Shown: positions 44,686-61,830, numbered from the stretch's first letter. The stretch: DNA of 64,000 bases from a virus (IMGVR_UViG_3300017605_000956:14479-78478); one strand, 5' to 3'. Translations and numbers: made by a program. The notes: a model not told the origin generated them from the sequence alone.

Positions 44686-44843
44686 CCGTACAGCCCGGGG
44701 TGCCCTCGACGCCCTGGGTTACGTTTCCCCCTCTCCCCGGGGCCAGGTCGCGCAGGGCGCGTCCTCCCTTGTGACCTGGCTCCCACGAGAGAGGGCGGCG
44801 AAGCAGCTCCGCGAGGTAGAATGGTGGAATGGAGGGGAACAAG

Positions 44844-45159: not shown

Positions 45160-45921
45160 ATGTCGAATCCCATCTCTCGCCGCCGCCAGTCCCAGCTCGA
45201 CGCGCTGAACGATGCGCCGCCCGGCCGCGGCGAGTCGATCCAGCGCCCCATGTCCGCCGGCGCCGACGGGATTCGCAAGCTCGAGGTCCCGAAGATGGTG
45301 CAGTACGTCCAGACCTTCAACTCGGATCCGAAGGTTGTCACCCTCGCGCAGCGCGTCATCCAGCTCTGCGAGGCGAAGGACAAGATGTGCGAGATGAACA
45401 CCCTGTTCCAGTGGACGAAGAACCACTTCCGCTACGTCAACGATCCGATCGACAAGGAAGCGATCAAGACCGCGCCGCGCATGATTGGCGAGATCATGAC
45501 GCCGCCCGAGGTGATCGAGCACATCCTGGGACCCGAGCTCATCACGCAGATGAATGGCTTCGGCCTGGGTCACGGCTCGCTGCTCGAGGGCGACCCGCGC
45601 AAGCGTCTCGTCCTCTGCATGGGCTGCTTCGATCAGCGCCTCTCCGGCCCGGTCCACTCGAAGGGCTCCGGTGACTGCGACGACGGCGCGACGTTCCTGG
45701 CGACGCTGCTCGCGGCTGTCGGCATCACGCCGCGCTTCCGCTTTGGCGGCCAGGAAGACGATTCCATGTCCGACGGCTGCAATTACCACCACGTCTGGGT
45801 GCAGGGCCAGGACGACAAGGGCGACTGGCACGACATGGACGTCACCGAGAAACGCTCGAAGCTCGGCTGGTTCTACGAAGGCTTCTCCTGCACCGGTGTT
45901 GCGGCCATCTTCGCGGAGTAG
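45160..45921 (+). CDS. transglutaminase-like cysteine protease
   Basis: FRYVNDP, GDCDD (Cys), HHVW (His), MDVT (Asp) triad. Confidence 0.88.
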   Translation: MSNPISRRRQSQLDALNDAPPGRGESIQRPMSAGADGIRKLEVPKMVQYVQTFNSDPKVVTLAQRVIQLCEAKDKMCEMNTLFQWTKNHFRYVNDPIDKEAIKTAPRMIGEIMTPPEVIEHILGPELITQMNGFGLGHGSLLEGDPRKRLVLCMGCFDQRLSGPVHSKGSGDCDDGATFLATLLAAVGITPRFRFGGQEDDSMSDGCNYHHVWVQGQDDKGDWHDMDVTEKRSKLGWFYEGFSCTGVAAIFAE

Positions 45922-46107
45922 AGTGCCCGGCAGCGGGTCGGGGTTCGGTGGATCGGGACGGATACGCTGAAGAAGTCCCGCGCGGTTGAGTCATCCGCGC
46001 AGAGTCCATCGCCCGACTCGCGGGGTTTTCCCCTCACCGTGCTCCCCCTGCGACGGCCCGCAACGCGGGCCGGCGCATGAGCGGAATTCTTTCTGTACGA
46101 TTTAGGC

Positions 46108-46136
46108 TTGACACACCGAGCCACTGCGGTAATACT
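46108..46136 (+). promoter_or_regulatory. sigma70-type promoter
   Basis: TTGACA followed 16-17 nt later by (T)AATACT. Confidence 0.55.
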
Positions 46137-46186
46137 CCGTCTCGATGAGGTCGTCACACCCGAGCCGCCGAAATAAGGAGATGCCC

Positions 46187-46780
46187 ATGAGCTCGAAGTG
46201 CCCGCCGGTCACCGTCAACCTCGACGAAGTCGTCGACACCGTCAAGGCGAAGATCCTGAGCGAGCACCCCGAGCTGACCTCCAAGAAGGTCGACGGGAAC
46301 GTCCACAGCGTCGGCATCCGCGGCCTCGGCGAGATCCGTCTCGTCGAGCCCACCGTCGATCCGAGCCAGTTCGTGATCGGCTTCGTGTCGATCCCGAGCG
46401 TCGTCAACATGGCGACGAAGCTGATGCAGGTCGGCGTCATCTTCCCGAAGGTCGACCTCGCGCTCTCGCGCGGCATCTTCGCGGGCGTCACGCTCGCGGG
46501 CACCCTCATCTCCGGCGGCAAGTCCTTTCTCCTCGGCGCCTTCCTCGGCCAGGTCCCCTCGACGATCGACGCGCTCGCGGACATCGCGGTCGCGGCCATC
46601 ACGAAGGCCAAGGCAGGCTCGGCGGCGGTCCAGGGCATCGACCTGGGCGGCCTGGGCGCGACGCAGGAGGAGGAGCTGCTGAAGCTCCGCGCCGACCTGA
46701 TGCAGCTCCAGGGCATCGGGCGCGACGGCGGCGAGCAGATGTCGGGCCACCGCGGCGGCTCGGTCGTGTTCCACCGGTAA
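46187..46780 (+). CDS. putative virion membrane/core protein with hydrophobic-Gly motifs
   Basis: RBS AAGGAG; hydrophobic core; IRGLG, VQGIDLGGLG, LQGIG, MSG. Confidence 0.7.
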   Translation: MSSKCPPVTVNLDEVVDTVKAKILSEHPELTSKKVDGNVHSVGIRGLGEIRLVEPTVDPSQFVIGFVSIPSVVNMATKLMQVGVIFPKVDLALSRGIFAGVTLAGTLISGGKSFLLGAFLGQVPSTIDALADIAVAAITKAKAGSAAVQGIDLGGLGATQEEELLKLRADLMQLQGIGRDGGEQMSGHRGGSVVFHR

Positions 46781-46882
46781 CCTAAAAAAAAGAGCCGTAC
46801 CAAGGCTCTCGGGAAGTCGTGGCCTGTAGCCGCGGCGTCAAGTAGCCCGGGTTCGCTTGGGCGGAGTTGAAGGAGAAGTCTC

Positions 46883-47476
46883 ATGAACGTCGGATTGCTG
46901 CCCCTGTTCCCGCGCGGCGTCGACTTCCGCGCCCGTCGGTTCCGGCTCCTGAAGGACCGGCACCTGTTCGACACCGAGGACATCGCCACGACGGACACGA
47001 CGAAGCAGTTCTTCGTCTCGATCTCGTCGAAGCGCAAGAGCCAGGCGATCTTCACCGGCGACTTCTCGCTGGTGAAGGAGGCGAACCTGTTCCTGGTGGT
47101 CGGCCTGCAGGCGCTGGTCCGGGACCAGACCCTGACGGTCTCCATCTGGCGCACCTTCTTCAACAAGGGTGCGTTCCAGTGGAACGTCATCGTCCCCGAG
47201 ACGGTGACGGTCGACGAGGACCGCCTCTCGGCCATCGCGCCGGGACCGGACTGGTACTCGTCCAACTCCGCCGACGCGGTGACCGCGGCGGGGACGAAGT
47301 ACGAGGACCGTCGCTCGTACCTCACCGGCGCGAACAAGATCGTCCCCGGCGGCCGGGCGATCGAGTTCACGGTGAACTGGCAGGAGTCGGCCGGCAACGG
47401 CCTCTCCACCACGACCAGCCTGAGCATCGTGTTCGCCGGGGGCGAGTACGAGCCCGGCCAGGTCGTCGGCAAGTAG
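46883..47476 (+). CDS. beta-rich protein, candidate single-jelly-roll capsid protein
   Basis: RBS AAGGAG; alternating beta pattern; strongly biased codons; CDS is clear, the fold is inference. Confidence 0.5.
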   Translation: MNVGLLPLFPRGVDFRARRFRLLKDRHLFDTEDIATTDTTKQFFVSISSKRKSQAIFTGDFSLVKEANLFLVVGLQALVRDQTLTVSIWRTFFNKGAFQWNVIVPETVTVDEDRLSAIAPGPDWYSSNSADAVTAAGTKYEDRRSYLTGANKIVPGGRAIEFTVNWQESAGNGLSTTTSLSIVFAGGEYEPGQVVGK

Positions 47477-47493
47477 TCCGCTTCGGCGGGCGC

Positions 47494-47563
47494 TTGACCA
47501 GCGTCACCTTTCACGGTAGCGTGTAACCGGGTGGTGGCTGGGGGTCGCTGACCCCCAGCCACC
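47494..47563 (+). promoter_or_regulatory. sigma70-type promoter followed by a 14-bp triloop hairpin
   Basis: TTGACC-17nt-TAGCGT; GGTGGCTGGGGGTC-GCT-GACCCCCAGCCACC (47533-47563). Confidence 0.55.
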
Positions 47564-47600
47564 CATCCTCACAAGAACGACGAGCTCGAGAGGGACCAAG

Positions 47601-48116
47601 ATGGCCGAAATCGACATCGGCAACCTGAAGATCGTCAACGTCACCAAGGACCTTTCCGCGGCGACCGAAGACGACTTCTCCTTCCGCGTCCCCCCGGGCG
47701 GCGTCGGGCTCATGAAGGAGTCCACGTACCACCTGCTGCGTTCCGCTCCCCTCTCGGGGACCGTGGACGCCGCGACGGTGCTGACCCCCGGCGAAGGGGG
47801 CAACGCCTACACCTCCGAGGCCGTGATCGTCAAGTCCCTCGAGGTGACGAAGCAGGGCGCCAGCGAGCGCACCAACCTGCTCTCGGGCAGCCCGAACATC
47901 AAGGAGTTCGCGGGCGACGGAAAGCTCTCCAAACTCTTCACCGTGATCGAGACCCTGGAGAACAACGAGGACGTCGTCATCAAGGTCCGCAACGACGACT
48001 CCGTCGAGGTCAAGGTCTCCATCACGCTCTGGTTCGCGATCAAGCCGCGCGAGCGGCGTATCGCCGGCCAGCCCGGAAGGGAGAAGGCCCCGATCGTCCC
48101 CGGCATCGACGAGTAG
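47601..48116 (+). CDS. beta-rich protein, candidate single-jelly-roll capsid protein
   Basis: FSFRVPPG, VVIKVRND..VKVSITLWF strands. Confidence 0.5.
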   Translation: MAEIDIGNLKIVNVTKDLSAATEDDFSFRVPPGGVGLMKESTYHLLRSAPLSGTVDAATVLTPGEGGNAYTSEAVIVKSLEVTKQGASERTNLLSGSPNIKEFAGDGKLSKLFTVIETLENNEDVVIKVRNDDSVEVKVSITLWFAIKPRERRIAGQPGREKAPIVPGIDE

Positions 48117-48155
48117 CGTCGCGCCCCTTGGGGCGGCGCATAACAAGGGGACGAC

Positions 48156-48716
48156 ATGGCTCGCCAGAAACTCGGTGAGGTCCGGGCAAGGATCAAGAAG
48201 CGGTACCAGGATGCCGCTGAAGAGGTCCGGCACTACTCCGTCCCCGACCTGATCCAGAACAAGCTGGAGCGGACCATCTGGGGGTTCCTCAACGAGTTCG
48301 GGATCAACTACCCCATCGACCTCGACCGTCCGCCGCCGGACGTCTACGTGCCGGCCCGGCAGGGTACCGGCTGCCTCGAGCCCCAGGGTTCGACCGACGA
48401 GAGAACGCCCCCGAGCCACACCGACGAGAAGTGCCTGACGTGGCGGGCTCGCGACGGTGGCATCCTCGTCATCGACTCCCTGGACTTCATCATGGAGGAC
48501 CCGATCGCGGAGGAGTTCTTCACGATCACGTACCAGTTCGACCAGCAGTACAACAGCGCGACCTTCCAGCGCAACAACGGCGACGTCGAGTTCGGCCACT
48601 GGAAGTTCAACCGCGTGGTGCTGGTCGATGGCGAGGTGCTCACGGTCTGCATCGCCAACTCGAACCCTTACGCGGGCGGTTGTTTCTCTCTCGAGTCCCG
48701 GAGCTGGAGCCTGTAG
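48156..48716 (+). CDS. beta-rich putative capsid/penton protein
   Basis: LVDGEVLTVCIANSN strand pattern parallels 47601. Confidence 0.45.
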   Translation: MARQKLGEVRARIKKRYQDAAEEVRHYSVPDLIQNKLERTIWGFLNEFGINYPIDLDRPPPDVYVPARQGTGCLEPQGSTDERTPPSHTDEKCLTWRARDGGILVIDSLDFIMEDPIAEEFFTITYQFDQQYNSATFQRNNGDVEFGHWKFNRVVLVDGEVLTVCIANSNPYAGGCFSLESRSWSL

Positions 48717-49463
48717 ATGGCATCGAAAGCCAAGTCCGGAATGTCCGCCGTCCGGATGTTCACCGAGAAGATCGTTGAACCTCCGAACACCTTCGTCGAG
48801 GGCGACACGTCGTTCTCGACGTCCGTCCGCGACGGCAAGGGTCATGCCGCGCTTCACGCCGGCGCGCTGAACGACACGACCGGAACGCTGGAGATCCTGC
48901 AGGCTTGGCGTGCGGCTGGACCGTTCGCCGTGCTCTTCTCGAAAGCGACCACGCTCGATTCCGAGAGCGGCCTCTATACCGTGGACATGACGGTTCCAGT
49001 GGTTCGCCGGTTCGTGAAGGTTCGCTTCACGCCCGCCGCGGATCCGCCCGGCCTGGGCGTGAACTTCGAGCTGGGCGCCTACTTCCTGCCGCGAGCCGAC
49101 TCGACGCCCTTCGAGAGCGAGTCGGGCGGTGCGGTGGTGGTCGAGGTCGCCGGCAGCCCCGGCAGCGTGATCGACGCAGGGGCCGATACCACCGTCAACG
49201 TGGGCACGACCGTTCCCCTCCCGGCCATCCCCGCCGGCACGCGCCGGATGACGGTCCAGAACACCGGCCCAGCCGGGACCTGGATCCGCGTCCGGAAGGT
49301 GGGCGGCGCAGCCGGTTCCGGAAGACTCCTCCCCCGCCTGGGCGAGTACACCTACGGCGGCGCCGATGGCGCCATCGCGGCGCTCGAGGTGGAAGACGTT
49401 TCCCTCGCCGTGGGAGGTTCGGCCGTTGCGACGACGGTCCTCCTCGAATTCGAGGAGGACTAA
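48717..49463 (+). CDS. two-domain beta-rich virion protein
   Basis: RFVKVRFT; RRMTVQNTG patterns. Confidence 0.55.
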   Translation: MASKAKSGMSAVRMFTEKIVEPPNTFVEGDTSFSTSVRDGKGHAALHAGALNDTTGTLEILQAWRAAGPFAVLFSKATTLDSESGLYTVDMTVPVVRRFVKVRFTPAADPPGLGVNFELGAYFLPRADSTPFESESGGAVVVEVAGSPGSVIDAGADTTVNVGTTVPLPAIPAGTRRMTVQNTGPAGTWIRVRKVGGAAGSGRLLPRLGEYTYGGADGAIAALEVEDVSLAVGGSAVATTVLLEFEED

Positions 49464-49466
49464 ACG

Positions 49467-50171
49467 ATGGGCGCTCCGACCTTCCTCGATCTCGCAGCCG
49501 CGATCGACCGAGTCCTCCACCGGAACATCAACTTCCCGTTCCGCTCGATCTCGTCGTCGCCCGACTCGATCATCGACACGGACCTGTACCTCAAGATCGA
49601 CGCGAGCGGCGGGAACCGCGTGCTCACGCTGCCCTCGGCGGCCACGGTCGGCGCCGGCATGGGCTTCAAGCTGATGCGGGTCGACAGCACGCTCGCCAAC
49701 ACCGTCACGATCGGGACGACGGGTGGCGAGACGATCAACGGCGCGTCTTCCGTCGGGATCACGAAGCAGTACGGCGCGCTCGAGATCGTCTCCGACGGCG
49801 CGAACTGGCTGCTCTACGCGAGCCCCGAGGCCTTCGCGCTCAAGAGCGACGTCCTCTGGACGTTCCCCAACACCGTCGCGAACGACCAGAACGCGGGCCT
49901 GTACACGTACTATGCCGCGCGGGCGACCTCGTTCGTCGCGCTCGACATCTACATGAACTCGGCCCCCACCGGCCAGGACATCATCGTGGACTGGGCGGTG
50001 AACGGCGTCATCAATCCGGCCTACCGGCTCACGCTGCCGGTCTCGACGCAGTACCTCGAGCTCGTGGTGGCTGTCTCTCTGGCCGTCGGAGACACGCTCA
50101 AGCCGTCGATCGTGCAGGTCGGTACGATCCAGCCCGGTCAGACGATGGCACTTCGTGCGAGGGGGGTCTAG
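49467..50171 (+). CDS. fibre/spike-like virion protein
   Basis: IDASGGNRVLTLPSA, TINGA, SDGANW fibre motif; APTG..LAVGD C-terminal domain. Confidence 0.7.
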   Translation: MGAPTFLDLAAAIDRVLHRNINFPFRSISSSPDSIIDTDLYLKIDASGGNRVLTLPSAATVGAGMGFKLMRVDSTLANTVTIGTTGGETINGASSVGITKQYGALEIVSDGANWLLYASPEAFALKSDVLWTFPNTVANDQNAGLYTYYAARATSFVALDIYMNSAPTGQDIIVDWAVNGVINPAYRLTLPVSTQYLELVVAVSLAVGDTLKPSIVQVGTIQPGQTMALRARGV

Positions 50172-50956
50172 TGACGGTTCCCGTCTATCTCCAGCCGTCC
50201 TTCAACTTCCTCGAGACGACGCTCGTCACGGACGTCGCCAACACGATCATCCGTATGAAGGCGCGCGCGGCGCTGCTCGGCTGGACGAATCCCGTGGGCG
50301 ACACCATCGTCAGCCCGGCGAATGCGGTCGGCCAGCAGATCACCATCGCGCTCTCGAGGATCGGTGCGACGAACATCCAGATGGTCGTGACCGATTCCCA
50401 GGGCCGGAGCTGCACCAGGCGGTGTCAGACGCCGGCCAGCTTCACCGAGCGGCTCTACTTCAACACCTATGGCTTCTTCTTCGATCCGGGGAACGGCGAG
50501 GGGCTGTGGTTCAGCCTGCTCGACCTCTCGCCCGACCTCCAGAGCTCGCACGACCAGTTCGCCGCGGGCCACGGAACGAGGAACAACGCGGACGCCGTCG
50601 ACGTCACGATGAGCGTGATGGCGGCGATGCAGCTCAGTTCCGCCACTCCACGGGTCTACACTGCCGTTGCCGCGGCGACCTGGGTGCCGAGAGGCAGCCT
50701 CGATTGCGGCGGAACCCAGAAGTTCAGCCAGGCGGGCTCCCGGATGTGGTACCCGCTCGTCCAGGCTGGCCCGTCGGTCGGTACCACGCTTCGCATTCGT
50801 GGCCGCGTCTATCAGGCCATTCTGGTTTCCAACGGAGAGGCCCCTCAGTCGGAATTCACGGTTCCTCTGGACCAGGCGACGACCGGACTCTTCAAGGTCC
50901 TCTCCTGGACGAATCAGGCGGGCGCCCTCTACTTCCTTGCCGTGAGAAAGGGATAG
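50171..50956 (+). CDS. virion protein (paralog of 50960..51766)
   Basis: GTG overlapping the upstream stop; TDV, WTN, SPA, YQ, VP.D..G.F shared with the next gene. Confidence 0.7.
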   Translation: MTVPVYLQPSFNFLETTLVTDVANTIIRMKARAALLGWTNPVGDTIVSPANAVGQQITIALSRIGATNIQMVVTDSQGRSCTRRCQTPASFTERLYFNTYGFFFDPGNGEGLWFSLLDLSPDLQSSHDQFAAGHGTRNNADAVDVTMSVMAAMQLSSATPRVYTAVAAATWVPRGSLDCGGTQKFSQAGSRMWYPLVQAGPSVGTTLRIRGRVYQAILVSNGEAPQSEFTVPLDQATTGLFKVLSWTNQAGALYFLAVRKG

Positions 50957-50959
50957 GCG

Positions 50960-51766
50960 ATGGCGATCCCGAATATCTTCCAGAGCAACTTCAAGTTCAC
51001 CGCTCTCGCCGCCGGAATCACCGACGTCCAGACGCTCATGGACGCGATCGTCACCATGCTCACCTCGACGCTCGACGTCGCGGATCGGTGGACGAACTCC
51101 CCGGCCTACACGTTGACGAGTCCGGCGGATCCGGTCACGGGCTACAAGATGACGCTCGTGCTCACCAGGGTCACGATCCTGCGAATGGGCTTCGTCCTCA
51201 AGGATCAGAACGGCAATACACTCCTCTCCACCGCCGAAGTGATCCTCTCGAGTGGCGAGGCGTTCAAGATCAGCGCCGGCCCGAAGCACCTCTACATCTG
51301 GGGATCGAGCGGAACGAACTTCGGCGGCTGCACGCTGGTCGACCCTGCCCCCGAGGCCCCCAACGCGCCGACGGTGGTCGTCTTCCAGAAGGCAAGTCAT
51401 GCCAGCGGCAGCGGCATCGCTTTCGGCAACCTGCCGGAGCGGTGGTTTGCCTTCGGCCCGGCCAATAGCGGGCAGGCTCTCGGACCCTACTACGTCGTGA
51501 ACACCGGGGTGCAGCAGTGCATGACCGCGGCCGGAAGCATGGTCTACGTTCCGGTCGCGCTGTGCGGGCTGGTGGGTGCGGTCGGTACCTTCGAGGGGTA
51601 CGCATACCAGTTGATCTGGGCGGACATCTCCATCGCGGCTCCTGCCCGCGTCGAAGTTCCCATCGACGACGGCGTCGTCGGCATCTTCGAGCGCATCGGC
51701 TTCCTGACCACGATGGGAGCCGGCTTCGCGACCCAGTGCGTGTCCCTTCTCGCTCGGGTGGGGTAA
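50960..51766 (+). CDS. virion protein (paralog of 50171..50956)
   Basis: Shares the motifs listed for the previous gene. Confidence 0.7.
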   Translation: MAIPNIFQSNFKFTALAAGITDVQTLMDAIVTMLTSTLDVADRWTNSPAYTLTSPADPVTGYKMTLVLTRVTILRMGFVLKDQNGNTLLSTAEVILSSGEAFKISAGPKHLYIWGSSGTNFGGCTLVDPAPEAPNAPTVVVFQKASHASGSGIAFGNLPERWFAFGPANSGQALGPYYVVNTGVQQCMTAAGSMVYVPVALCGLVGAVGTFEGYAYQLIWADISIAAPARVEVPIDDGVVGIFERIGFLTTMGAGFATQCVSLLARVG

Positions 51767-51772
51767 TGTCCG

Positions 51773-53758
51773 ATGTCGAGACTCAGTCGCTGGTGGCACC
51801 GTCGCCGTAAGAAGCGGCGTCGTCTCTTCATCTTCGGAGTCTGGATCGGCGGCGGCGACGAACCAACGGACGTCCCCGATCCCATCGTCCCGCCGGACCC
51901 CTACAACGGCGAGCTCGCCCTCGTGTCGGACACGTTCAACGTCACTGACACCGACGCGAACTACGTCGACATCTTCGTCACCAGAACGAACGGCTTCGAC
52001 GGCGCCGTCAGTGTGCAGTACCGCCTCATCCCAGGTACCGCCACGGCTGGAGTCGACTATACCGACGTGAGCGGCACGCTCAACTGGTCGAACCTCGACC
52101 AGTCGCAGAAGAGCTTCCGCATCCCGATCCTGGCCCGTTCGGTGAGCGGCGACTTCGACTTCCAGGTGGAGCTGCACACTCCCGCCGGAGGCGCCACGCT
52201 CGCGCTCGACACCGCCGACGTCACGATCGCGCGCCGCGGGAATGGTGAGGCTGCCTTCGCCGGCGCGATCTACTACAAGCAGAATCCGACCCCGGCGCCG
52301 TCGGCCAACCTGACGCTCCAGGTCCAGCGAAACAAGGCGTTCAAGGACGGCGTCACGGTGAACTGGCACACCGTGAATGGCACGGCGATCGCCGGAACCG
52401 ACTACACCGCCGGATCCGGCACGCTCACCTGGGTGAACGGCGACGGCGCCGCGAAGTCCATCATCATCGCGATCCTTGGAAGAGCGGGAGGTCCGTTCGG
52501 CGACCGTCTCTTCACCGTCGTCCTCGACACCCCTACGGGCGGCATCGTCATCGCGTCACCCAGCGTCGCAACCGTGACACTCACCGATGGCGTTCCTCCG
52601 GCGAACCCATCGGTCTCTGCATCCTACCCCAATCAGATCGCGGACGCCTTCTACACGGCCTCGGATGAGATCCTGGCCGGTGACGACTTCGCGGTCACGA
52701 ACTTCAACCTCCTGATCAATTCCTATGCCGGGTCGATCGACGCGGCAGACCCTGTCGGCAATCCGATCAACAACGTCATCGACAACCGCCTGACCGACCT
52801 GCTCGCCGTCTCGGTCTTCTTCGCATCGAACGTGGGCGTCGGCGTCGGGAATGGCGGGATGATCATGAGGACGGCCGACAACGGGCTCACCTGGTTCAAG
52901 CCTTACGGAGGAACGTCGAAACACCTCCGCGCGGTCTACATGGCGAGCGCCTCGGTCGGCTGGGCCGTGGGCGACGACGGCACGATCATCAAGACGACGG
53001 ACGGCGGAAACTCGTGGACCGCTCAGACCAGCGGAACGACGGAGCACCTCTACGGGATCTGGGCCGAGAGCACGAGCATCGTCTACGTGGTCGGAGCCAA
53101 CGGCACGATCCTGAGAACCTCGAACGGCGGGACGAACTGGGGCGCCCAGACCAGCGGCGTCTCGGAGCACCTTCGCTCCGTCAGCACCAACGGCGCCGGC
53201 ACCGGCTGGGTCGTGGGAGACAGCGGCCGGGTCCTCAAGACCGTCAACAACGGCACCAACTGGAACACGCAGACCAGCGGCACCTCCGAAAACCTTCGCA
53301 GCGTGTGGGTGCGCGACGCGACGAACGTCTGGGCCTGCGGCACCAACGGGAAGATCATCAAGGGCGACGGCACCAACTGGGCGTCCCAGAATAGCGGTGG
53401 CGGCCACCTGAACAGCATCGCGATGATCAGCACGACCGTCGGCTGGGCGGTGGGCGACAGCGGCCGCATCTTGAAGACCACCAACGGATCGACATGGTCC
53501 GCTCAAACCAGCAACACGACGAAGAACCTCTACGGCGTGGTCTACACCGAGGTTGGAGCGAACCAGGTCATCGCCGTGGGCGAAGACATGACCTCGGATC
53601 GGACCGCCAACGGCGGGACGGCCTGGGCCACCGTCGGTACTCCTGCCATCACCATCGGCCCGCCCTTCGCGGCCAGGAATGGAGGCATGGACTACTCGAA
53701 CGAAGACGACACGTTCGCCCCGACGTCGAGATTTGCCCTTGGCGGCATGATCTCGTAG
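51773..53758 (+). CDS. adhesin/spike: two Calx-beta domains + YCF48/BNR beta-propeller
   Basis: GTATAGVDY/GTAIAGTDY..GTL.W Calx-beta; repeated GWAVGD.G.I.KT..GG..W..QTSG. Confidence 0.88.
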   Translation: MSRLSRWWHRRRKKRRRLFIFGVWIGGGDEPTDVPDPIVPPDPYNGELALVSDTFNVTDTDANYVDIFVTRTNGFDGAVSVQYRLIPGTATAGVDYTDVSGTLNWSNLDQSQKSFRIPILARSVSGDFDFQVELHTPAGGATLALDTADVTIARRGNGEAAFAGAIYYKQNPTPAPSANLTLQVQRNKAFKDGVTVNWHTVNGTAIAGTDYTAGSGTLTWVNGDGAAKSIIIAILGRAGGPFGDRLFTVVLDTPTGGIVIASPSVATVTLTDGVPPANPSVSASYPNQIADAFYTASDEILAGDDFAVTNFNLLINSYAGSIDAADPVGNPINNVIDNRLTDLLAVSVFFASNVGVGVGNGGMIMRTADNGLTWFKPYGGTSKHLRAVYMASASVGWAVGDDGTIIKTTDGGNSWTAQTSGTTEHLYGIWAESTSIVYVVGANGTILRTSNGGTNWGAQTSGVSEHLRSVSTNGAGTGWVVGDSGRVLKTVNNGTNWNTQTSGTSENLRSVWVRDATNVWACGTNGKIIKGDGTNWASQNSGGGHLNSIAMISTTVGWAVGDSGRILKTTNGSTWSAQTSNTTKNLYGVVYTEVGANQVIAVGEDMTSDRTANGGTAWATVGTPAITIGPPFAARNGGMDYSNEDDTFAPTSRFALGGMIS

Positions 53759-53761
53759 AAT
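53733..53761 (+). promoter_or_regulatory. sigma70-type promoter
   Basis: TTGCCC-17nt-TAGAAT. Confidence 0.5.
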
Positions 53762-53792
53762 GAAGGTGCGACCGGGGATCAGGAAAGGTTGA

Positions 53793-54337: not shown

Positions 54338-54338
54338 A

Positions 54339-54506
54339 ATGGCGTCCGAGCTCTGCGCGATCGTGGCGGCATTGGCCGCCGTGTGGTTCTTTGTGTTGTG
54401 GGTATCCGCCCGAGTGGATCTCGTGCGGGAGAAGGAAGAAAAGGTGTCCATCCTGACCGAGCTCCGGAGGCACGCGGAGCAGAAGCGTCACTCGAGGTCC
54501 TCTTGA
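54339..54506 (+). CDS. 55-aa single-TM protein
   Basis: Not in track; LCAIVAALAAVWFFVLWV. Confidence 0.55.
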   Translation: MASELCAIVAALAAVWFFVLWVSARVDLVREKEEKVSILTELRRHAEQKRHSRSS

Positions 54507-54730
54507 TCCTCTCACGACGGATCAAGAACGCCGATAAGAAGGCCCGCGCCATCATCGCTGATCTCCTCCCCATGCTGGACGATCCCGAGGTTGCGACCGA
54601 CCCCTGCTTCCTCGCCCTCCTCGACCAGGCCCTTCTCGTAGCCGAGCGCCGGCTCGATCGCCACAAGCGTCCGACCGAGCGCAAGATGCGCGAGACGATC
54701 ACTCACCACGGGAAAACCGTGGAATCTTGA
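54503..54730 (+). CDS. hypothetical protein
   Basis: TTGA coupling. Confidence 0.45.
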   Translation: MILSRRIKNADKKARAIIADLLPMLDDPEVATDPCFLALLDQALLVAERRLDRHKRPTERKMRETITHHGKTVES

Positions 54731-54755
54731 CTCCGTCACTTCCGCTTTGTATTCT
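54727..54755 (+). promoter_or_regulatory. sigma70-type promoter, probably giving a leaderless mRNA
   Basis: TTGACT-17nt-TATTCT, ATG 6 nt later, no SD. Confidence 0.6.
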
Positions 54756-54761
54756 TCCGGC

Positions 54762-55439
54762 ATGACGAATCGACGCATCCTCATTGGCATCCCCCAGTTC
54801 GGCCAGAACGACCCGCGCACCACCGTCACGCTCTTCATGCTGGCGAAGTACCCCGGCACCGAGCTGATGCAGGTCCGCCGCTCGATGCCCGACATCGCCC
54901 GCAACGCGCTGGCCGAGCACGCCCTGAAGATGAAGCACGAGTTCGTCTTCCTCCTCGACGACGACATGACGATCGAGGAAGGCCACCCGGCTGCCATGCT
55001 CGACGCCCTGGTGCAGGCGATGGACAAAGATCCGCTGCTGGGCATCGTGGCGCCACGAGCGTACAAGCGGACCACCCCGTTCTACCCCTGCGTGTTCCGC
55101 AAGCAGGGAGACAAGCTCTACAAGCCGGTCGATACCGTGGGCAAAGGACTCGTCGAGGTCGACGCGATCCACTGCGCCGCGACGCTCATTCGCCCGAGCG
55201 TCTTCGAGAAGGTCGCGAAGCCCTGGTTCGAGTTCACGCAGCTCGGGGAGACGCGCCTGGGCGAGGACATCTCCTTTACCCGGAAGGTGAAGGAGGCCGG
55301 GATTCGGATGATGTGCCACACGGACCTGCAGGTCCAGCACATCTCCGACCCGGTCCTGGTGGACTACAACGCCTACCAGGCGTACAACTTCGCCAAGGCG
55401 GAGGCCGACAAACAGGCCTCCCCCATTGTGCGTCCTTGA
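54762..55439 (+). CDS. GT2-like glycosyltransferase
   Basis: ILIGIP, ARN, LLDDD, VEVDA, GEDISF. Confidence 0.85.
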   Translation: MTNRRILIGIPQFGQNDPRTTVTLFMLAKYPGTELMQVRRSMPDIARNALAEHALKMKHEFVFLLDDDMTIEEGHPAAMLDALVQAMDKDPLLGIVAPRAYKRTTPFYPCVFRKQGDKLYKPVDTVGKGLVEVDAIHCAATLIRPSVFEKVAKPWFEFTQLGETRLGEDISFTRKVKEAGIRMMCHTDLQVQHISDPVLVDYNAYQAYNFAKAEADKQASPIVRP

Positions 55440-55464
55440 CGCCCGCCCTGGTCGGGGTTATAGT
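55436..55464 (+). promoter_or_regulatory. sigma70-type promoter
   Basis: TTGACG-17nt-TATAGT. Confidence 0.7.
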
Positions 55465-55481
55465 CCGACCGGAGGTGCATC

Positions 55482-55853
55482 GTGGAAAACCTGCCCATCA
55501 AGACCTTCGACGTCCTCTCGTTCACCGGCCTGATCGCGCTCCTGCCCTTCCTCCTCGAGGGGGTCAAGAAGCTCGCCCCCGGCTTCATCAGCGGGAAGGA
55601 GAACTGGCTCTGCGTGATCCTGGCCTATGCCATCGGCATCCCGGTCAAGATCGCCACCCCCACCGCCTACAACGGGCTGATCGGCCCGATGGGCTGGATC
55701 GTCACGATCATCGGCCTTTTCCTCACCGCGATCGCCGCGATGATGGTCCACGACAAGGTCCTGGCCGGAATGTTCGGCTGGGAGGACAAGGACGGCGCCC
55801 CGCCTAGTACCGGCGGCGGTCAGGGGGGTGCGAATCAGGGAGGTGGCGCGTGA
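55482..55853 (+). CDS. holin-like 3-TM protein
   Basis: LEGVKK after TM1; three hydrophobic segments. Confidence 0.65.
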   Translation: MENLPIKTFDVLSFTGLIALLPFLLEGVKKLAPGFISGKENWLCVILAYAIGIPVKIATPTAYNGLIGPMGWIVTIIGLFLTAIAAMMVHDKVLAGMFGWEDKDGAPPSTGGGQGGANQGGGA

Positions 55854-56119
55854 AGTCGATTTTCGGCCGGCTCCGTTCCCTCGTACTGCTCTTCATCGTG
55901 GCGGCGCTGTGCGCCGCCACGACCGGGTGCGCCCTGTTCAAGAGCCCTGACAAGGCATTCGTCACCGGGGTCAACGCCTACGCGGTGGACTCCGGGCTCC
56001 TCGACGAGTACGACAAGTACGTGGACGCCGACCCCAGCCTCAAGCCCGAGTCCAAGAAGATCCGCCACGACAGCGCCACGGGCCTTCGCAAGATCATCAA
56101 GGACGCTCAGGCTCGGTAG
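55850..56119 (+). CDS. small lipoprotein
   Basis: Signal peptide with lipobox-like TTGC. Confidence 0.65.
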   Translation: MKSIFGRLRSLVLLFIVAALCAATTGCALFKSPDKAFVTGVNAYAVDSGLLDEYDKYVDADPSLKPESKKIRHDSATGLRKIIKDAQAR

Positions 56120-56170
56120 CCTGCGATGTGCCAGGTTTGCGACGCTGAAGACCTTGAGGAGGCTCTGATC

Positions 56171-56509
56171 ATGCCGAATCCGTGGGACAAGCTCTCGGGC
56201 GAGCTGCTCGAAACCCTGAAGATCAGCGTCCACGACTTCATCGACACTGAGAAGCAGGAGGTCGTCGATTTCCTCCGCGAGAAGTCGGTGGAGATCGCCA
56301 AGCAGACCTGGGTGTCCCTCAACGGGACCGACGAAGAGCGGGCCGAGGCCATCGGCAACCTCCGCCACCTGAAGGCTCAGGTGGTGGGCCAGGCCGCGAG
56401 CATGGAGCTCGTGGCGACGACGGCCGCGGTGAAGCTGCTCGGGAAGGTCTTCGAGGTCGTGGTGAACGTCGCGCTCCAGTATGGCGTGAAACTGCTGGTC
56501 GCACTCTAG
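56171..56509 (+). CDS. helical hypothetical protein
   Basis: RBS GAGGAGG before ATG 56171. Confidence 0.65.
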   Translation: MPNPWDKLSGELLETLKISVHDFIDTEKQEVVDFLREKSVEIAKQTWVSLNGTDEERAEAIGNLRHLKAQVVGQAASMELVATTAAVKLLGKVFEVVVNVALQYGVKLLVAL

Positions 56510-56611
56510 CGAAAACGCGCTAGAATGCCCCCAGATCGACGCATTGGCGAGGGGTGGTAGCGCGAGTCGTTGTGGCTCGAATTGGCGCGACTGGTGGCGA
56601 CTGGACGAGTG

Positions 56612-56642
56612 TTCGCATGGGGGGCGCAGCCCCCCATGCGAA
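56612..56642. repeat. perfect hairpin with GCA triloop
   Basis: TTCGCATGGGGGGC-GCA-GCCCCCCATGCGAA. Confidence 0.9.
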
Positions 56643-56660
56643 GAAGGCAGGAAGGAACGA

Positions 56661-58010
56661 ATGCCGAGCCAGCTTCTTGAACTGGGCGCAACGCAGCTCC
56701 TCGAGCTGGGCAACACCCGGCGCATCTACATGGGCGACACGCCCATGCCCCAGACCGTCAAGGCGGTCTACGACTTCGTCAATATCTTCGAGGACCCGCT
56801 CGCCGCGACCGGGATCAGCGACGACGACCTGACCCCCGAGGCGCTCTCGATCGTCAACCGGATCCGGACCGTCAACAAGCGCGTCCGGAACAGTCTCGAT
56901 TCCACCCTTTCGCTCGGAGACATCTCGGGGTACGACGACGTCCAGAACCTCGCGTACCAGCTCAACGGCCTCTACCTGGGCAAGAGCTTCTTCAAGCGCG
57001 CGGTCAAGGCGGTGAAGCGGATCCACAAGACCGTCGCGAAGAAGATCGTGAACGTGGTGAAGTCGCCGGCGTTCCTCTCGGTGGCGGCGCTGGTCGTGAA
57101 CGTGATCCCCGGCGTGGGCCAGGCGGCCTCCGTGGCGCTGGCGGCGGCCGCCGCGGCGCGCAAGGTGTACGCCCAGAAGGTCGACGAGAAGAAGGCCAAG
57201 CGGGCGCAGAACGCCTTCAACGCCCAGCAGCAGGCCGAGTTCCTGAAGGAAGTGAAGGACTACAATCGGAAGACGCAGGAGTACTACGAGGCGGCGAACT
57301 ACCCGATCCCCAACGGCCAGCTCATCGACGCGAACGGCAACCCGACGAGCGACCCGAAGCAGGCCCCCGGAATCAAGTACCCGATCAACATCAACGGGAC
57401 GATCTACCAGGACCCGAACCCGGTCGCTACCCCCGGCCCCGGAGTCGTGACCCAGCCCAACCCGGCGACCCCCGGCGCCGTCTCGGTGTCTCCGATTCCG
57501 GTGCAGGCTCCTCCGACCCAGCAGCAGATCACGCAGGCGGCCGCGCTGCCGGCGGCCATGGCCCTCACCAACGGCCAGGGCGCGTGGCAGGCGAACGCGA
57601 TCCTGCACTCCTTTGACATGGGGACGCAGCAGCAGATCGCGGGCGAGGTCTCCGAGATCCAGAAGTTCGTGAACGACCCGAGCTTCCGCCCGACGTCCGT
57701 GAAGGCCATCGGGCAGTTCGTGGCGATGTCCGAGTTCGACCGTGGCGCCGGCACGAACATCATGACCGAGGAGCAGCACGCTCTGGCCGATGCGGTGAAG
57801 GCTCACGCGACCCCCGAAGTGTGGAAGGCGATCGAAGCGGGCCGTCAGGCTCTGGTCACGTCCGCCGCGATCGACGGCAAGGATGCCGCCGCAGCCATCC
57901 AGGCTGCCATCGACAAGGGGGCGAGCTCTGGCGTCCCCTGGACCTACATCCTGGTGGGCCTCGGGGTTGCGGCCGCGGGCGGAGTGGGTTATGCTCTTGC
58001 GCGGAGATAA
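56661..58010 (+). CDS. C-terminally membrane-anchored virion protein with internal basic amphipathic helix
   Basis: LYLG-KSFFKRAVKAVKRIHK..IPGVG; C-terminal TM followed by RR. Confidence 0.75.
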   Translation: MPSQLLELGATQLLELGNTRRIYMGDTPMPQTVKAVYDFVNIFEDPLAATGISDDDLTPEALSIVNRIRTVNKRVRNSLDSTLSLGDISGYDDVQNLAYQLNGLYLGKSFFKRAVKAVKRIHKTVAKKIVNVVKSPAFLSVAALVVNVIPGVGQAASVALAAAAAARKVYAQKVDEKKAKRAQNAFNAQQQAEFLKEVKDYNRKTQEYYEAANYPIPNGQLIDANGNPTSDPKQAPGIKYPININGTIYQDPNPVATPGPGVVTQPNPATPGAVSVSPIPVQAPPTQQQITQAAALPAAMALTNGQGAWQANAILHSFDMGTQQQIAGEVSEIQKFVNDPSFRPTSVKAIGQFVAMSEFDRGAGTNIMTEEQHALADAVKAHATPEVWKAIEAGRQALVTSAAIDGKDAAAAIQAAIDKGASSGVPWTYILVGLGVAAAGGVGYALARR

Positions 58011-58013
58011 ACG

Positions 58014-59072
58014 ATGAGCATCATGGTCGTTCCCAACCGGATCCGCGACCTGGGTCGCTTCACCATGGGCGCGGAACCCGCGTCGATGATGAATCCCGCC
58101 GACCTCAAGATCCTGATGCTCCTGTCGACGAAGGACCTCCTGCGCCTCGGGCAGATGATCTCGGCAGGCCGGAAGATCGTGTCGCAGAAGATGGGCGGCC
58201 TGATCGGGCAGCTCAAGCCCGCTCTCGACTTCCTGGGCTCGGTTCGTTCCACCCTCTCGATCCTCGGGATGAAAGCGGATGAGTCGACGCTCGAGGCGAC
58301 GGCCGAACAGGCCAGCGTCTTCAAGGCCTCGAGCGATGCCGTGACGCTGATCACCGACCAGGCCGACATCGTCCTCGACGGCATCGCTCGGCTGGTCAGC
58401 AGCCGCGAGCAGAGCTGGCAGGTCGGCTACACGAGGTACACGAGCTTCGAGGGCGTCCAGGTCGTCGGCAGCGGCGTCCAGGGCGGCATGAAGCTGGTGT
58501 CGCTCGACTTCCCCGGCCAGAGCCTCTGGGACTGCGTGGAGTACCTCTACGACAATCGTGGTCTGGTCGACACCGTGAAGAAGGCCTCGGCCGAAGCCGG
58601 TCTGAGCGGCCTGCCGCTGGTGATCGGCATCGTCGTGGTCATCCTGGCGCTGATCCTCGCGATCTACAATCTCGCGAAGTACCTCATGGACTCCAAGAGC
58701 CGCGAGGCCGAGAAGCTGCGCGACGCGAAGCGCAAGAACGTCGAGACGCGGGTCCTGAACCAGGTGGTCATCGACCAGCGCCAGTCGGAGCTCAACCGGA
58801 TCCTGAACACGCCCCCCGAAGAGCGGACGCAGTCCGACGCCGGCCGGATCGCGGCCCTCAAGGTGGAGCTCAACTCGCTCACCGCGGCGAACGCCGGCCT
58901 CGAGGCTCAGGACAACGAGATCGACAAGAGCCTCGAGCAGGCCAAGAACGCCGATGACATTGTCGAGAGGCTGAACAAGGCGGTGGGCTCCGGGATGACC
59001 GTCCTGACCTACGGCCTGGCGGGGCTCGGCCTCCTGCTCGCGGGTTACGTGACGTGGAAGGTGATCGCGTGA
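58014..59072 (+). CDS. two-TM coiled-coil virion membrane protein
   Basis: TM LPLVIGIVVVILALILAIY after GLSG; C-terminal TM. Confidence 0.75.
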   Translation: MSIMVVPNRIRDLGRFTMGAEPASMMNPADLKILMLLSTKDLLRLGQMISAGRKIVSQKMGGLIGQLKPALDFLGSVRSTLSILGMKADESTLEATAEQASVFKASSDAVTLITDQADIVLDGIARLVSSREQSWQVGYTRYTSFEGVQVVGSGVQGGMKLVSLDFPGQSLWDCVEYLYDNRGLVDTVKKASAEAGLSGLPLVIGIVVVILALILAIYNLAKYLMDSKSREAEKLRDAKRKNVETRVLNQVVIDQRQSELNRILNTPPEERTQSDAGRIAALKVELNSLTAANAGLEAQDNEIDKSLEQAKNADDIVERLNKAVGSGMTVLTYGLAGLGLLLAGYVTWKVIA

Positions 59073-59593
59073 AGAAGACCTGGCTCAAGGGTGGCATCTC
59101 CAACCCGACGCCCTCGGGCGGCTCGGGCGGGAAGGGTCGCCTCAAGGGCGTCCCCTTCTTCTCGAAGTACTTCGCCAAGCGCGAGGTCTCGAAGCGTGAG
59201 AAATCGGTGAAGGCCGTCTCGGACAAGATCAAGAATCTCGTGAACGCCGAGAGCACGAAGGTCGAGAACGCGATCCGCAAGGCTGAGGACACCAACGACC
59301 ACAAGCTGATCGTCCGGGCGCGGTCGCTGCGCGACCAGCTCGAGCGCGCGTCGTGCAAGGAGCCCGACTTCGAGGAGGGACCGGACGAGGGCTCCGAGCC
59401 GAAGGCTCCCAAGATGACGAAGGCCGAGCGGGAGGCGCTGCTCAGGGACTGCGCGGCCGCCGCGAACACGGCCACTGGCATGAACTGGGAGTCGACCCGC
59501 GGCCACTTCTCGACGAAGGATCCGGCCAAGCTCGAGGTCGCGAAGCTCTGGCAGTCCACCTACGAAAGTTGCCAGGCCCAGAAGGGCCTTTGA
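59069..59593 (+). CDS. basic helical protein
   Basis: GTGA coupling; LKG motifs. Confidence 0.65.
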   Translation: MKKTWLKGGISNPTPSGGSGGKGRLKGVPFFSKYFAKREVSKREKSVKAVSDKIKNLVNAESTKVENAIRKAEDTNDHKLIVRARSLRDQLERASCKEPDFEEGPDEGSEPKAPKMTKAEREALLRDCAAAANTATGMNWESTRGHFSTKDPAKLEVAKLWQSTYESCQAQKGL

Positions 59594-59616
59594 TTTCATA
59601 TCTCTGGAGGAATGGA

Positions 59617-60174
59617 ATGGAGAGCATCCACAAGGACACCACGGTCAAAATGCAGCCCCGCAACGAGCTCGCCTCGGAGCAGGCGAAGTGGGATCGCGAC
59701 GTCTCGGCCATCCTGAAGAAGGTCCAGTTCCGGGGCACCGTCTACATGATGCTCGGCTACATCGTGTACGGCCTGGGCTCGGTGGCGATCATGTGGTTCA
59801 TGAGGAGCCAGGCCGCCCTTGCGACGGCGATGGTGATGTTCTTCTTCCAGCTCTGCGTGATCTACTTCGGGTGCAAGGTCATTTTCCCCAACATCGCCGG
59901 GGCCTTCCAGGTCGGACTCCTCGCCAACCGAAACTCGATGCCCGCCTTCATCAAGCTGGCCGAGGTCGCCGGCGACCAGGACAACTCCCCCCTGATCAAG
60001 TCGATCAAACAGGCGGGACTTGACATCAAGGCGACCGGGGATACAATCCGACAAGAGATCGCGGGGTTGAGGGAGGCGATGGTGAAGCCCATCGCCCCGC
60101 CGTTCAAGAAGATCGTGCCGCCCCCGATCGCGGAGACGAAGAGTGCCGAACCCGCCCAGACCTCCGGCGCCTAA
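59617..60174 (+). CDS. two-TM membrane protein
   Basis: RBS GGAGG; two hydrophobic helices. Confidence 0.7.
   Translation: MESIHKDTTVKMQPRNELASEQAKWDRDVSAILKKVQFRGTVYMMLGYIVYGLGSVAIMWFMRSQAALATAMVMFFFQLCVIYFGCKVIFPNIAGAFQVGLLANRNSMPAFIKLAEVAGDQDNSPLIKSIKQAGLDIKATGDTIRQEIAGLREAMVKPIAPPFKKIVPPPIAETKSAEPAQTSGA
60020..60047 (+). promoter_or_regulatory. intragenic sigma70-type promoter upstream of the repeat protein
   Basis: TTGACA-16nt-TACAAT. Confidence 0.55.
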
Positions 60175-60288
60175 AACGACGGCTCCCGTCCAGCCGTCGG
60201 TGAATATCAACATCGTCCAGCGCGGCAAGCCCGCCAAGACCGTTTCGGTCAAGCCGGGGTGCTGCCTGAGTAAGAAGGGAGCCACCAA

Positions 60289-61830
60289 ATGAGCCGGAAC
60301 GCCCACTTCTCGCTGCTCGGCAACATGGGCACGTCCTATGCGCCCGACGCGGAAGGCTCCGCCGAAGGAGACATCCTCGGCGTCTCGGCTTACGACCTCG
60401 CCGGTCTGCGCGAGGACGATGCTTCGGTGCGTCTCGGCGTCAGCGCCTACGACCTGGCCGGTCTCCGCGAGGACGACGCGGCCGTTCGCATGGGCGTCTC
60501 GGCGTATGACCTCGCCGGGCTCCGGGAGGACGACGCCGAGGTTCGGATGGGCGTCTCCGCCTACGATCTCGCGGGCCTCCGCGAGGACGATGCGGCGGTG
60601 CGCCTGGGGCTCACCGACTTCGACGGCGCCAGCGGCAGCGCCGAGGGCTCGGCGGCCGGTCACCGGGTCGCCCAGATGGGCCTGCTCGTCTCCGACGGCC
60701 GCATGGGCGGGATGGTCGAGGACCACTACGACATCCGCATGGGCGTGTCGGCCTACGACCTCGCGGGGCTGCGCGAAGACGACGCGGCGGTCCGCATGGG
60801 CGTGAGCGCCTACGATCTCGCCGGCCTGCGGGAAGATGACGCGGCCGTCCGAATGGGCGACTCGCGCTACGGCGCCCGCTACGGCACCCAGTACCGCCTC
60901 CTGCGGTACAAGGGCGACTACGGCACCGAGTACACCCGGCTGCCGGGCCGCCGCCTGGCGAAGGGCAAGAAGCGTCGCATGGCCGACGTCGACTCCATGA
61001 GCGCCGAGGCCATGGCGATCGAGCAGTACGGCCAGATCGCGGGCGTGACCAACACGTTCCGGATGGGCTACATCCTGCGCGGCCTGCGCGAGGATGACGC
61101 CTCCGTCCGGATGGGCGTGTCCGCCTATGACCTGGCGGGCCTCCGGGAAGACGACGCCGCCGTGCGTATGGGCACGGCCTACGCCGACGATGCCACGGGC
61201 AGCGCCGAAGACCCCTCGGGCCGCGCGGGCCTGGGGGTTTCGGCCTACGACCTGGGCCGCCGGCGCGCGTACCCCTACAGCGTCGACGGCGCGGAAGTGA
61301 ACCCGCCCGCGATGCTGGCGGCCGATGGCTTCCACGAGCGGTTCCCCGTCCGCCTCCGCGGGCTGGGCCGGATCAACCTGGGCAACATCGCCTGGACCGA
61401 GGCCATGCCCCGGCTCCAGACCGCGATCGCGCAGGAAGCGAAGCTCTACGCCCGCGTCCTGCGGCTCAACGACACCTCGAAGGCCGCGATCATGACCCAG
61501 GTCGCGAACCTGAACGCGCTCGACAAGGGCCAGCTCTTCAACGGGCAGCTCACCGTCTACCTCAACGGCGGCGAAGCCCACTGGCTCGCTCACGAGGGGA
61601 CGCAGCGCCGGCTGTTCGCCACGGAGAAGATCATCCCCACGGTCGACGCGATGCTCACGGCCTACGAGCGGGGCGCCACCCCGGACGAGGCCCTGAAGGC
61701 GGCTCTCGCCAACGTCGACAAGCGGATCGACGACCTGAAGAGCGGTTTCATGCAGTACGCCCTGCCCATCGGCGGCGGAGTCGTCGCGGCGGGCATTATC
61801 ACCGCTCTGGTCCTGAGCGCCTCCAAGTAG
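60289..61830 (+). CDS. 19-aa repeat, polyprotein-like membrane-anchored protein
   Basis: 7 full VSAYDLAGLREDDAxVR(M/L)G units plus partials; C-terminal TM. Confidence 0.85.
   Translation: MSRNAHFSLLGNMGTSYAPDAEGSAEGDILGVSAYDLAGLREDDASVRLGVSAYDLAGLREDDAAVRMGVSAYDLAGLREDDAEVRMGVSAYDLAGLREDDAAVRLGLTDFDGASGSAEGSAAGHRVAQMGLLVSDGRMGGMVEDHYDIRMGVSAYDLAGLREDDAAVRMGVSAYDLAGLREDDAAVRMGDSRYGARYGTQYRLLRYKGDYGTEYTRLPGRRLAKGKKRRMADVDSMSAEAMAIEQYGQIAGVTNTFRMGYILRGLREDDASVRMGVSAYDLAGLREDDAAVRMGTAYADDATGSAEDPSGRAGLGVSAYDLGRRRAYPYSVDGAEVNPPAMLAADGFHERFPVRLRGLGRINLGNIAWTEAMPRLQTAIAQEAKLYARVLRLNDTSKAAIMTQVANLNALDKGQLFNGQLTVYLNGGEAHWLAHEGTQRRLFATEKIIPTVDAMLTAYERGATPDEALKAALANVDKRIDDLKSGFMQYALPIGGGVVAAGIITALVLSASK
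60382..61257 (+). repeat. 57-bp coding tandem repeats
   Basis: 4 copies 60382-60609, 2 copies 60745-60858, 1 copy 61117-61173, partials at 61081 and 61237. Confidence 0.9.

Follow-up and report, generated by a model that had tools for sequence, protein, structure and literature searches.

What does a transglutaminase-like cysteine enzyme do at the head of a block of putative structural viral genes? Here we analyzed a 64,000-nucleotide stretch (the window), which comprises bases 14479-78478 of the 78,478-bp IMG/VR virus record IMGVR_UViG_3300017605_000956 and encodes such an enzyme at 45160-45921; coordinates are those of the window unless given as whole-genome positions. An initial annotation of 45160-61830 had proposed that the enzyme is a maturation protease, cutting structural precursors at hydrophobic-Gly sites. 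Neither the fold nor viral transglutaminase-like genes as such are new. What is new is the long subfamily with its insert, the status of the gene as a core gene in an undescribed virus family, and the link to gp34 of Salisaeta phage SSIP-1. As for function, a peptidoglycan hydrolase, which the initial annotation had named as an alternative at odds with its own proposal, is slightly favored.

An enzyme of the transglutaminase fold

45160-45921, + strand: transglutaminase-fold Cys-His-Asp enzyme, 253 aa, predicted from Pfam, homologs, a structure model, and the gp34 alignment
45496-45657, + strand: subfamily-specific insert, residues 113-166, ~55 aa, with conserved M-x-G-F-G and C-x-x-C, from alignments and the model
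45676-45678, + strand: codon of the predicted catalytic Cys173, inside an invariant D-C-D, from homolog alignments

The enzyme matches Pfam Transglut_core (PF01841) over residues 167-227 (E = 5.8e-7, 30.2 bits, cutoff 23). This was its only match in a Pfam hmmscan at E <=0.01, with none to C5/clan CE, C71 (PF12386), or C93 (PF06035). A search of a large protein database returned 94 relatives: ~50 full-length proteins of ~250 aa, with 40-87% identity, and a remainder of shorter ones, ~140-300 aa long and mostly ~170 aa. Cys173 and His211 (45790-45792) are invariant across ~50 metagenomic homologs, while Asp225 (45832-45834) is at least 90% conserved in one alignment (A1) and the whole triad is invariant in another (A2). 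The intact Cys-His-Asp gene described in the initial annotation is thus borne out, and the gene, judged from its sequence, is a real cysteine enzyme whose predicted catalysis is probably active. The insert that had been noted around MNGFGLG (45550-45570) is also present, with G133, F134, and G135 conserved. It is confined to the long subfamily and missing from both the ~170-aa relatives and SSIP-1 gp34.

The AlphaFold model of the enzyme has a mean predicted local distance difference test score (pLDDT) of 74.6; the insert is mostly of low confidence, with pLDDT <50 at residues 135-166. Foldseek matched the model to 3isr (E = 3e-5), and the VIA matches were led by 3kd4 (Z 12.2), TG3 (11.6), factor XIII (11.3), and TG2 (~11), over ~150 residues, with PNGase (9.9), PeiP (8z4f, 9.2), and LapG (4fgq, 8.9) further down. 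Since the model matches transglutaminase-superfamily structures only, we regard the predicted fold as certain. As modeled, this fold does not separate protease, isopeptidase, amidase, and transglutaminase chemistries.

Other searches returned little. PHROGs gave no match for the enzyme or most of its neighbors, and a sequence-profile search of the PDB gave nothing meaningful. The enzyme sequence alone had no match in IMG/VR, where a profile of alignment A1 found distant ~170-aa relatives only. Neither a megablast of the gene block nor a tblastn of the enzyme matched any of 50,697 phage records. Within its 253 residues the enzyme has no hydrophobic segment, signal peptide, wall-binding domain, or membrane anchor. 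Related clusters of ~170-190-aa viral transglutaminase-like proteins hold 196, 353, and 70 members; these are 89-96% viral and labeled mostly as tailed phages, and Peptidase_C93 is found in 35% of the members of one neighboring viral cluster. Two distant relatives lie near replication genes, one beside a DNA polymerase (L017) and one beside a replication-initiation protein (L002). Since the neighbors of the distant relatives in L017, L003, L002, L004, and L006 are replication genes or have no matches, the context of these relatives is uninformative.

An intein of ~363 aa splits one ortholog (L028:4179-6026, contig Ga0247727_10002546) at the point just ahead of its catalytic Cys. The intein begins CIPF, carries LAGLIDADG-like blocks, and has VHN at its end, directly adjoining the catalytic Cys. 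The split gene also has an in-frame TGA at the position of its relatives' Cys207.

The nearest named relative

The closest named relative of the enzyme is gp34 of SSIP-1 (JN880423; L031:21296-22210), a 304-aa protein labeled "structural protein" in GenBank and the only product of that length in the SSIP-1 record. Aligned by hhalign, the enzyme family and gp34 match with 97.8% probability (E = 9.9e-13) over 129 columns at 28% identity, including the D-C-D, H-V, and W-x-x-D motifs. The two are also connected by tblastn (E = 4.5e-5), and gp34 itself matches Transglut_core (E = 8.9e-7). The best viral fold match of the enzyme model in BFVD is I1ZBG7 (304 aa, E = 9e-11), which, judged from its length, is probably SSIP-1 gp34. 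From these alignments we identify gp34 as an unannotated transglutaminase-like Cys-His-Asp protein. It differs from the enzyme in having no ~55-aa insert and in carrying a ~140-aa C-terminal extension that ends in a hydrophobic membrane anchor.

The SSIP-1 particle is icosahedral, contains a membrane, and has two types of capsid protein (PMC6356626). Its transglutaminase-fold gene heads a structural block, as the enzyme gene heads a putative one in the genome studied here, and neither virus has recognizable tail genes. The genomes differ in size (43.8 kb versus 78.5 kb). No other similar protein pair was detected between them, and the 46883 and 46187 families showed no similarity to SSIP-1 gp45, gp46, or ORF35. 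Homology to gp34 makes it probable that the enzyme is packaged in the particle or works there.

A conserved gene block and its virus family

42881-44623, + strand: conserved protein of 580 aa, its long middle part charged and probably a coiled coil; first gene of the block, with orthologs always upstream of the enzyme
44829-45146, + strand: 105-aa Cys/His-rich protein directly upstream of the enzyme, with orthologs in L018, L019, L020, L023, L028, and L029
46187-46780, + strand: hydrophobic protein of 197 aa that ends in a charged helix, invariably encoded next after the enzyme, from ortholog alignments and synteny
46883-47476, + strand: 197-aa predicted beta-sandwich protein, the most conserved block gene and a candidate capsid protein, from homologs and a model
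47601-48116, 48156-48716, 48717-49463, and 49467-50171, + strand: four more conserved block genes, syntenic in L020, L024, L027, L028, and L029

Relatives of the enzyme occur on 11 metagenome contigs and on one contig of a metagenome-assembled genome (MAG) assigned to Thermoanaerobaculia; a protein from a Vicinamibacteria MAG is also among the homologs. As far as each reaches, nine contigs, two of them belonging to Acidobacteriota MAGs, share the gene order 42881, 44829, enzyme, 46187, 46883, 47601, 48156, 48717, 49467, and this synteny is strict at 35-87% identity. The pairing of enzyme and 46187 is invariant. Comparison of these contigs identifies the enzyme as a core, co-inherited gene of a predicted particle-building block in a new family of ~72-84 kb viruses.

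A candidate capsid protein is 46883. Its family has 65 homolog clusters, several of them on 72-84 kb contigs that carry the enzyme too. The model is a beta sandwich (pLDDT 79.7), and VIA ranked highest against it the capsid proteins of membrane-containing viruses, namely SPV1 (Z 6.8), HHIV-2 (6.6), STIV (6.3), and HCIV-1 (5.9), along with VP17 (5.7) and VP16 (5.2) of P23-77, all under the Z 8 caution line of the tool. Foldseek returned nothing at E <=0.001 for this model, and the family profile had no match in IMG/VR. The predicted protein thus weakly resembles the single-jelly-roll capsid proteins of membrane-containing viruses. The initial annotation had placed the enzyme at the start of the structural genes; synteny bears out that it heads a conserved block of particle genes, and the term "structural" is no more than plausible, with the Z scores of 46883 all below 8. 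The 42881 protein, with orthologs at 33-62% identity in L018, L020, L024, L028, and L029, has no Pfam or PHROG match, and 49467 has a weak PHROG match to a baseplate protein (E = 2.9e-6). Two block genes are tandemly duplicated elsewhere, 46883 at L026:3954-5248 and 47601 at L027:2592-3458, which fits paralogous capsid-type proteins.

The wider genome has a GC content of 64%, holds essentially all its genes on the + strand, and carries a 141-bp terminal repeat, which makes 50960-62464 contiguous with the 14.5 kb that precede the window. More than 20 proteins encoded in these two regions have membrane segments. Among ~80 proteins scanned across the 78-kb genome we found no terminase, portal, HK97-type capsid protein, or tail protein. 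The early half encodes replication and modification genes of phage type, including a D12 methylase, two more DNA methylases, a PD-(D/E)XK nuclease, AAA_24, DUF669, ParB, DUF3987, RNase H, and NYN. The family is probably tailless and membrane-containing, and its hosts are probably Acidobacteriota. Literature searches on transglutaminase-like proteins together with jelly-roll capsids, and on membrane-containing viruses of Acidobacteria, found nothing.

Hydrophobic-glycine motifs

56661-58010, + strand: 449-aa membrane protein with two N-terminal LLELGxxx units (56673-56717) and a conserved L-G-D-I in the 56907-56927 region, from homolog alignment
60289-61830, + strand: 513-aa protein with seven 19-aa units containing RMG, LRGLGRI (61354-61374), and a C-terminal membrane anchor, from sequence

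Every motif string quoted in the initial annotation is present in the gene to which it was assigned, and the starts given there for 46187 and 56661 agree with ortholog alignments. Expected counts of [LMI]G and [LMI]xG were taken from within-protein shuffles, which match composition, and the late set comprised all 25 proteins of 45160-62900. In this set the motifs are not dense but occur at chance: 82 observed versus 82.5 expected for [LMI]G, 88 versus 81.8 for [LMI]xG, and 164 versus 156.5 for their union (z 0.7). The raw rate of the two motifs is higher in late than in early proteins (3.07 versus 2.16 per 100 aa) because late proteins are richer in Gly and Leu, so that the structural-versus-early comparison put forward earlier shows a compositional difference and no enrichment of the motif as written. 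The seven proteins singled out as motif-rich do exceed expectation (91 versus 61.9). However, one 19-aa repeat, present seven times in 60289, accounts for half of this excess. With the repeat left out z is ~2.6, about the level to be expected when the richest proteins are selected. Likewise, the RMG and RLG strings reported throughout 60289 are there, but their source is the seven near-identical units (core GVSAYDLAGLREDDA) at residues 31, 50, 69, 88, 152, 171, and 276.

Narrower patterns gave a different result. The adenain-type [LMI]xGxG occurs 9 times in the late block versus 8.0 expected and 20 times in the left arm versus 5.8 (z 6.1), and [LMI]xGG 6 versus 8.3 and 14 versus 5.6 times, respectively. 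For [LIM]xG[LIMFV]G, a pattern set partly after the data were seen, the counts are 8 versus 2.27 expected in late proteins (p 0.0005), 12 versus 1.64 in left-arm membrane proteins, and 1 versus 2.85 in early proteins; late and left-arm proteins together hold 20 sites versus ~3.9 expected. On these counts the motif is enriched in late and membrane proteins. In an unbiased pattern search GLG.I came second, occurring in 7 proteins where 0.65 were expected (p 5e-6). In 5 of 12 shuffled proteomes, however, the top pattern scored as well, and the motif is not singled out after genome-wide correction. In SSIP-1 the signal of [LIM]xG[LIMFV]G is weak (5 versus 1.83 expected, p 0.03).

Most sites of this narrow motif lie outside 45160-61830, often in tandem, and 5 of 21 fall within membrane segments. 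Eight instances have the form [IL][KRHE]GLGxI and stand at extreme N-termini or 10-25 residues ahead of a membrane segment, often doubled. Inside 45160-61830, non-membrane instances occur in three proteins only: in the enzyme's own loop, in 46187, and in 60289. The sites in 46187 are IRGLGEI (46316-46336) and LGGLGA (46643-46660). Across its orthologs (27-81% identity) the Gly of [LM]-G-x-[IV] and that of [LI]-G-[AS] are invariant, with a hypervariable linker ahead of the second LG site, and the ortholog in L019/L020 has no GLG at site 1. In the 56661 family (17 homologs; P0161-P0180) the extreme N-terminus carries 0-4 tandem 8-aa LLELGxxx units, whose copy number differs between close relatives, and the L-G-[DE]-[IV] site is nearly invariant, as are L85 and G86. 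Arrays whose copy number varies in this way are commonly binding repeats, and less typically cleavage sites. Of the Gly-site processing code first proposed, then, the motif as written is at chance, an outcome that the initial annotation had itself named as refuting, and a narrower motif is enriched, mainly outside 45160-61830 and in a way that fits docking or repeat functions at least as well as cleavage.

Upstream of the window, the genes at whole-genome 786, 7009, 12995, 13323, and 14356 encode small membrane proteins in which units of [IL][KRHE]GLGxI or LGxI, in many cases doubled, precede a membrane segment by 10-25 residues; those at 786 and 7009 look paralogous. Class III (prepilin) signal peptides, lipoboxes, Tat signals, and sortase/exosortase signals were considered for the LG motifs and rejected by eye, as neither the spacing to hydrophobic segments nor the residue patterns fit.

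Possible roles of the enzyme

The reading that ranks first, held tentatively, is that of a virion-associated cell-wall peptidase. We infer that the enzyme would be carried by the virion here, and that the Cys173 thiol would attack the peptide of the host cell wall at a peptide or isopeptide bond, so as to allow genome entry, lysis, or both. The hydrophobic 46187 protein would serve as its membrane partner or holin-like companion, and the LG-type motifs would be a separate feature of virion membrane proteins, most likely a short, often tandem docking motif. We favor this reading because the virion label and anchor of gp34 mirror PRD1 P7, in which an enzyme domain is likewise followed by a C-terminal anchor, and because Pfam turned up no other recognizable wall hydrolase, such as a lysozyme, amidase, or transglycosylase, among the ~80 proteins of the genome. 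The role would parallel that of PRD1 P7/P15, particle-borne, membrane-associated, wall-degrading enzymes encoded among structural genes; these differ in being glycosidases (transglycosylase, muramidase) rather than cysteine peptidases, with no homology to the enzyme. Two further reasons are the invariant pairing with 46187, hydrophobic and with a charged C-terminal tail, and the many small viral relatives labeled as tailed phages, which have prohead proteases of their own; these labels suggest a function independent of jelly-roll capsid maturation. The chemistry would parallel that of PeiP/PeiW, the phage-encoded transglutaminase-fold Cys-His-Asp enzymes of methanogen phages (MEROPS C71), and the precedent they set also favors a wall peptidase, as they cleave a cell-wall isopeptide bond (PMC10318531). 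PeiP (8z4f) superimposes on the enzyme model with an rmsd of 3.1 over 123 aligned residues at the Z of 9.2 given above, and the psiM2 enzyme is also among the BFVD matches. PeiP and PeiW differ in their wall-binding repeats and archaeal pseudomurein substrate, and the enzyme here has no sequence-level membership in C71. Several points weigh against a wall peptidase. The wall-binding domain, signal peptide, and membrane anchor are all missing from the enzyme, and to our knowledge transglutaminase-fold wall hydrolases are documented for pseudomurein only, not for bacterial murein. Lysins are usually mosaic, but this gene equals the capsid-like genes in conservation and synteny, and it occupies the position where tailed phages keep their prohead protease. 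The negative Pfam result for lysins is weak evidence, most proteins of the genome being without matches, and this reading does not explain why [LIM]xG[LIMFV]G is enriched in late proteins or why the enzyme's loop conserves M-x-G-F-G.

These last two features are what a maturation protease would account for. Such an enzyme would cut virion membrane or core proteins, and perhaps its own insert loop, at [IL]-x-G-[LF]-G or at [LI]-G followed by Ala or Ser, trimming short N-terminal leaders or separating domains during assembly as adenain does in adenovirus. We consider this doubtful and rank it slightly below the wall peptidase. In its favor are the 20 late and left-arm sites of the narrow motif with a single early one, the left-arm excess of [LMI]xGxG, the placement of the [IL][KRHE]GLGxI sites at N-termini or shortly before membrane segments, the conservation of sites beside hypervariable linkers in 46187 and 56661, and the retention of M-x-G-F-G in the loop. 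Strict co-inheritance with capsid-like genes, the virion label of gp34, and an intein at the catalytic Cys also fit an essential morphogenetic enzyme. Bacterial transglutaminase-fold proteases cut at small-residue sites as well: LapG of the BTLCP family (C93) at a di-alanine site, and lasso-peptide B proteases in the leader before a Gly. LapG differs in being periplasmic and calcium-dependent, the substrates of both are unrelated to virions, and the enzyme here has no C93 profile match. With adenain and the core proteases of African swine fever virus (ASFV) and poxviruses (clan CE) only the proposed logic is shared, a packaged Cys protease acting on (M/I/L)xGx-G-type sites in large jelly-roll DNA viruses; fold and family differ, and no excess of the adenain pattern, set a priori, is seen in the late block (9 versus 8.0), where the motif as first written is also at chance. 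The narrow motif is partly post hoc and fails the genome-wide correction, some of its sites lie within membrane segments, and the tandem arrays, with their 0-4 LLELGxxx units and doubled LGxI, look more like binding repeats than cleavage sites. In SSIP-1, with a homologous enzyme, the motif signal is weak, and the 46187 ortholog of L019/L020 has lost the GLG of site 1. We also know of no prokaryotic jelly-roll virus, membrane-containing phages included, that has a maturation protease. The fuller proposal is a prokaryotic membrane-containing jelly-roll virus matured by a packaged transglutaminase-fold Cys protease that cuts [IL]-x-G-[LF]-G and LG-A sites and autoprocesses its insert loop, convergent with the Gly-site systems of adenovirus, ASFV, and poxviruses; it is unlikely. 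A host protein as the target, in takeover or counter-defense, would make the place in the late block incidental and leave the motif-bearing membrane proteins to an M48 or a DUF2201 peptidase. The genome does encode a Peptidase_M48 with a C-terminal membrane segment (E = 5e-30) amid the motif-rich left-arm genes and a DUF2201_N match (E = 8e-43), and distant relatives of the enzyme stand beside replication genes, but strict synteny with capsid-like genes at 35-87% identity and the virion label of the closest named homolog make this target improbable. Least probable of all is a transglutaminase that stabilizes the large particle by Gln-Lys isopeptide bonds or Gln deamidation in capsid or membrane proteins. 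The best full-domain matches after 3kd4 are true transglutaminases, and the label of gp34 is consistent with such a role; however, 3kd4, 3isr, PNGase, PeiP, and LapG score similarly, so the fold does not tell these chemistries apart, and small microbial PF01841 proteins are generally predicted to be hydrolases.

If the enzyme is a maturation protease, proteolytic maturation at Gly sites would not be limited to the large DNA viruses of eukaryotes. Should it instead be a wall peptidase, no earlier lysin of transglutaminase fold would be known to act on bacterial murein, and the finding would suggest a function for SSIP-1 gp34 and for hundreds of small viral transglutaminase-like proteins. On either reading the gene is a marker of a virus family that is coherent and has not been described before, made up of 72-84 kb contigs and probably infecting Acidobacteriota, and Cys173, a single conserved and easily mutated residue, makes the question directly testable.

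Other features of the genome

The membrane-anchored Peptidase_M48 is encoded at whole-genome 7952-8824, upstream of the window, and the DUF2201 metallopeptidase/VWA protein at 9311-10540, preceded at 8105-9229 by a Walker-A protein with no Pfam match. A short tyrosine recombinase (221 aa; Phage_integrase E = 1.7e-12) lies at 62939-63604, at the genome end beside the terminal repeat. The apparent intergenic gap at ~50168-50956 (+ strand) holds an open frame of ~262 aa with codon-position GC like that of real genes; it has no Pfam match and was overlooked because it is nested inside a longer spurious open reading frame. At least five glycosyltransferase-like genes of the GT1/GT4, GT9, and GT2 types are present, at whole-genome 9-734, 2726-4021, and 4386-5810 and at window positions 24940-25539 and 54747-55439. 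At 51773-53758, a 661-aa protein combines Calx-beta domains with a BNR-type propeller, and may be a glycan-related spike or receptor-binding protein.

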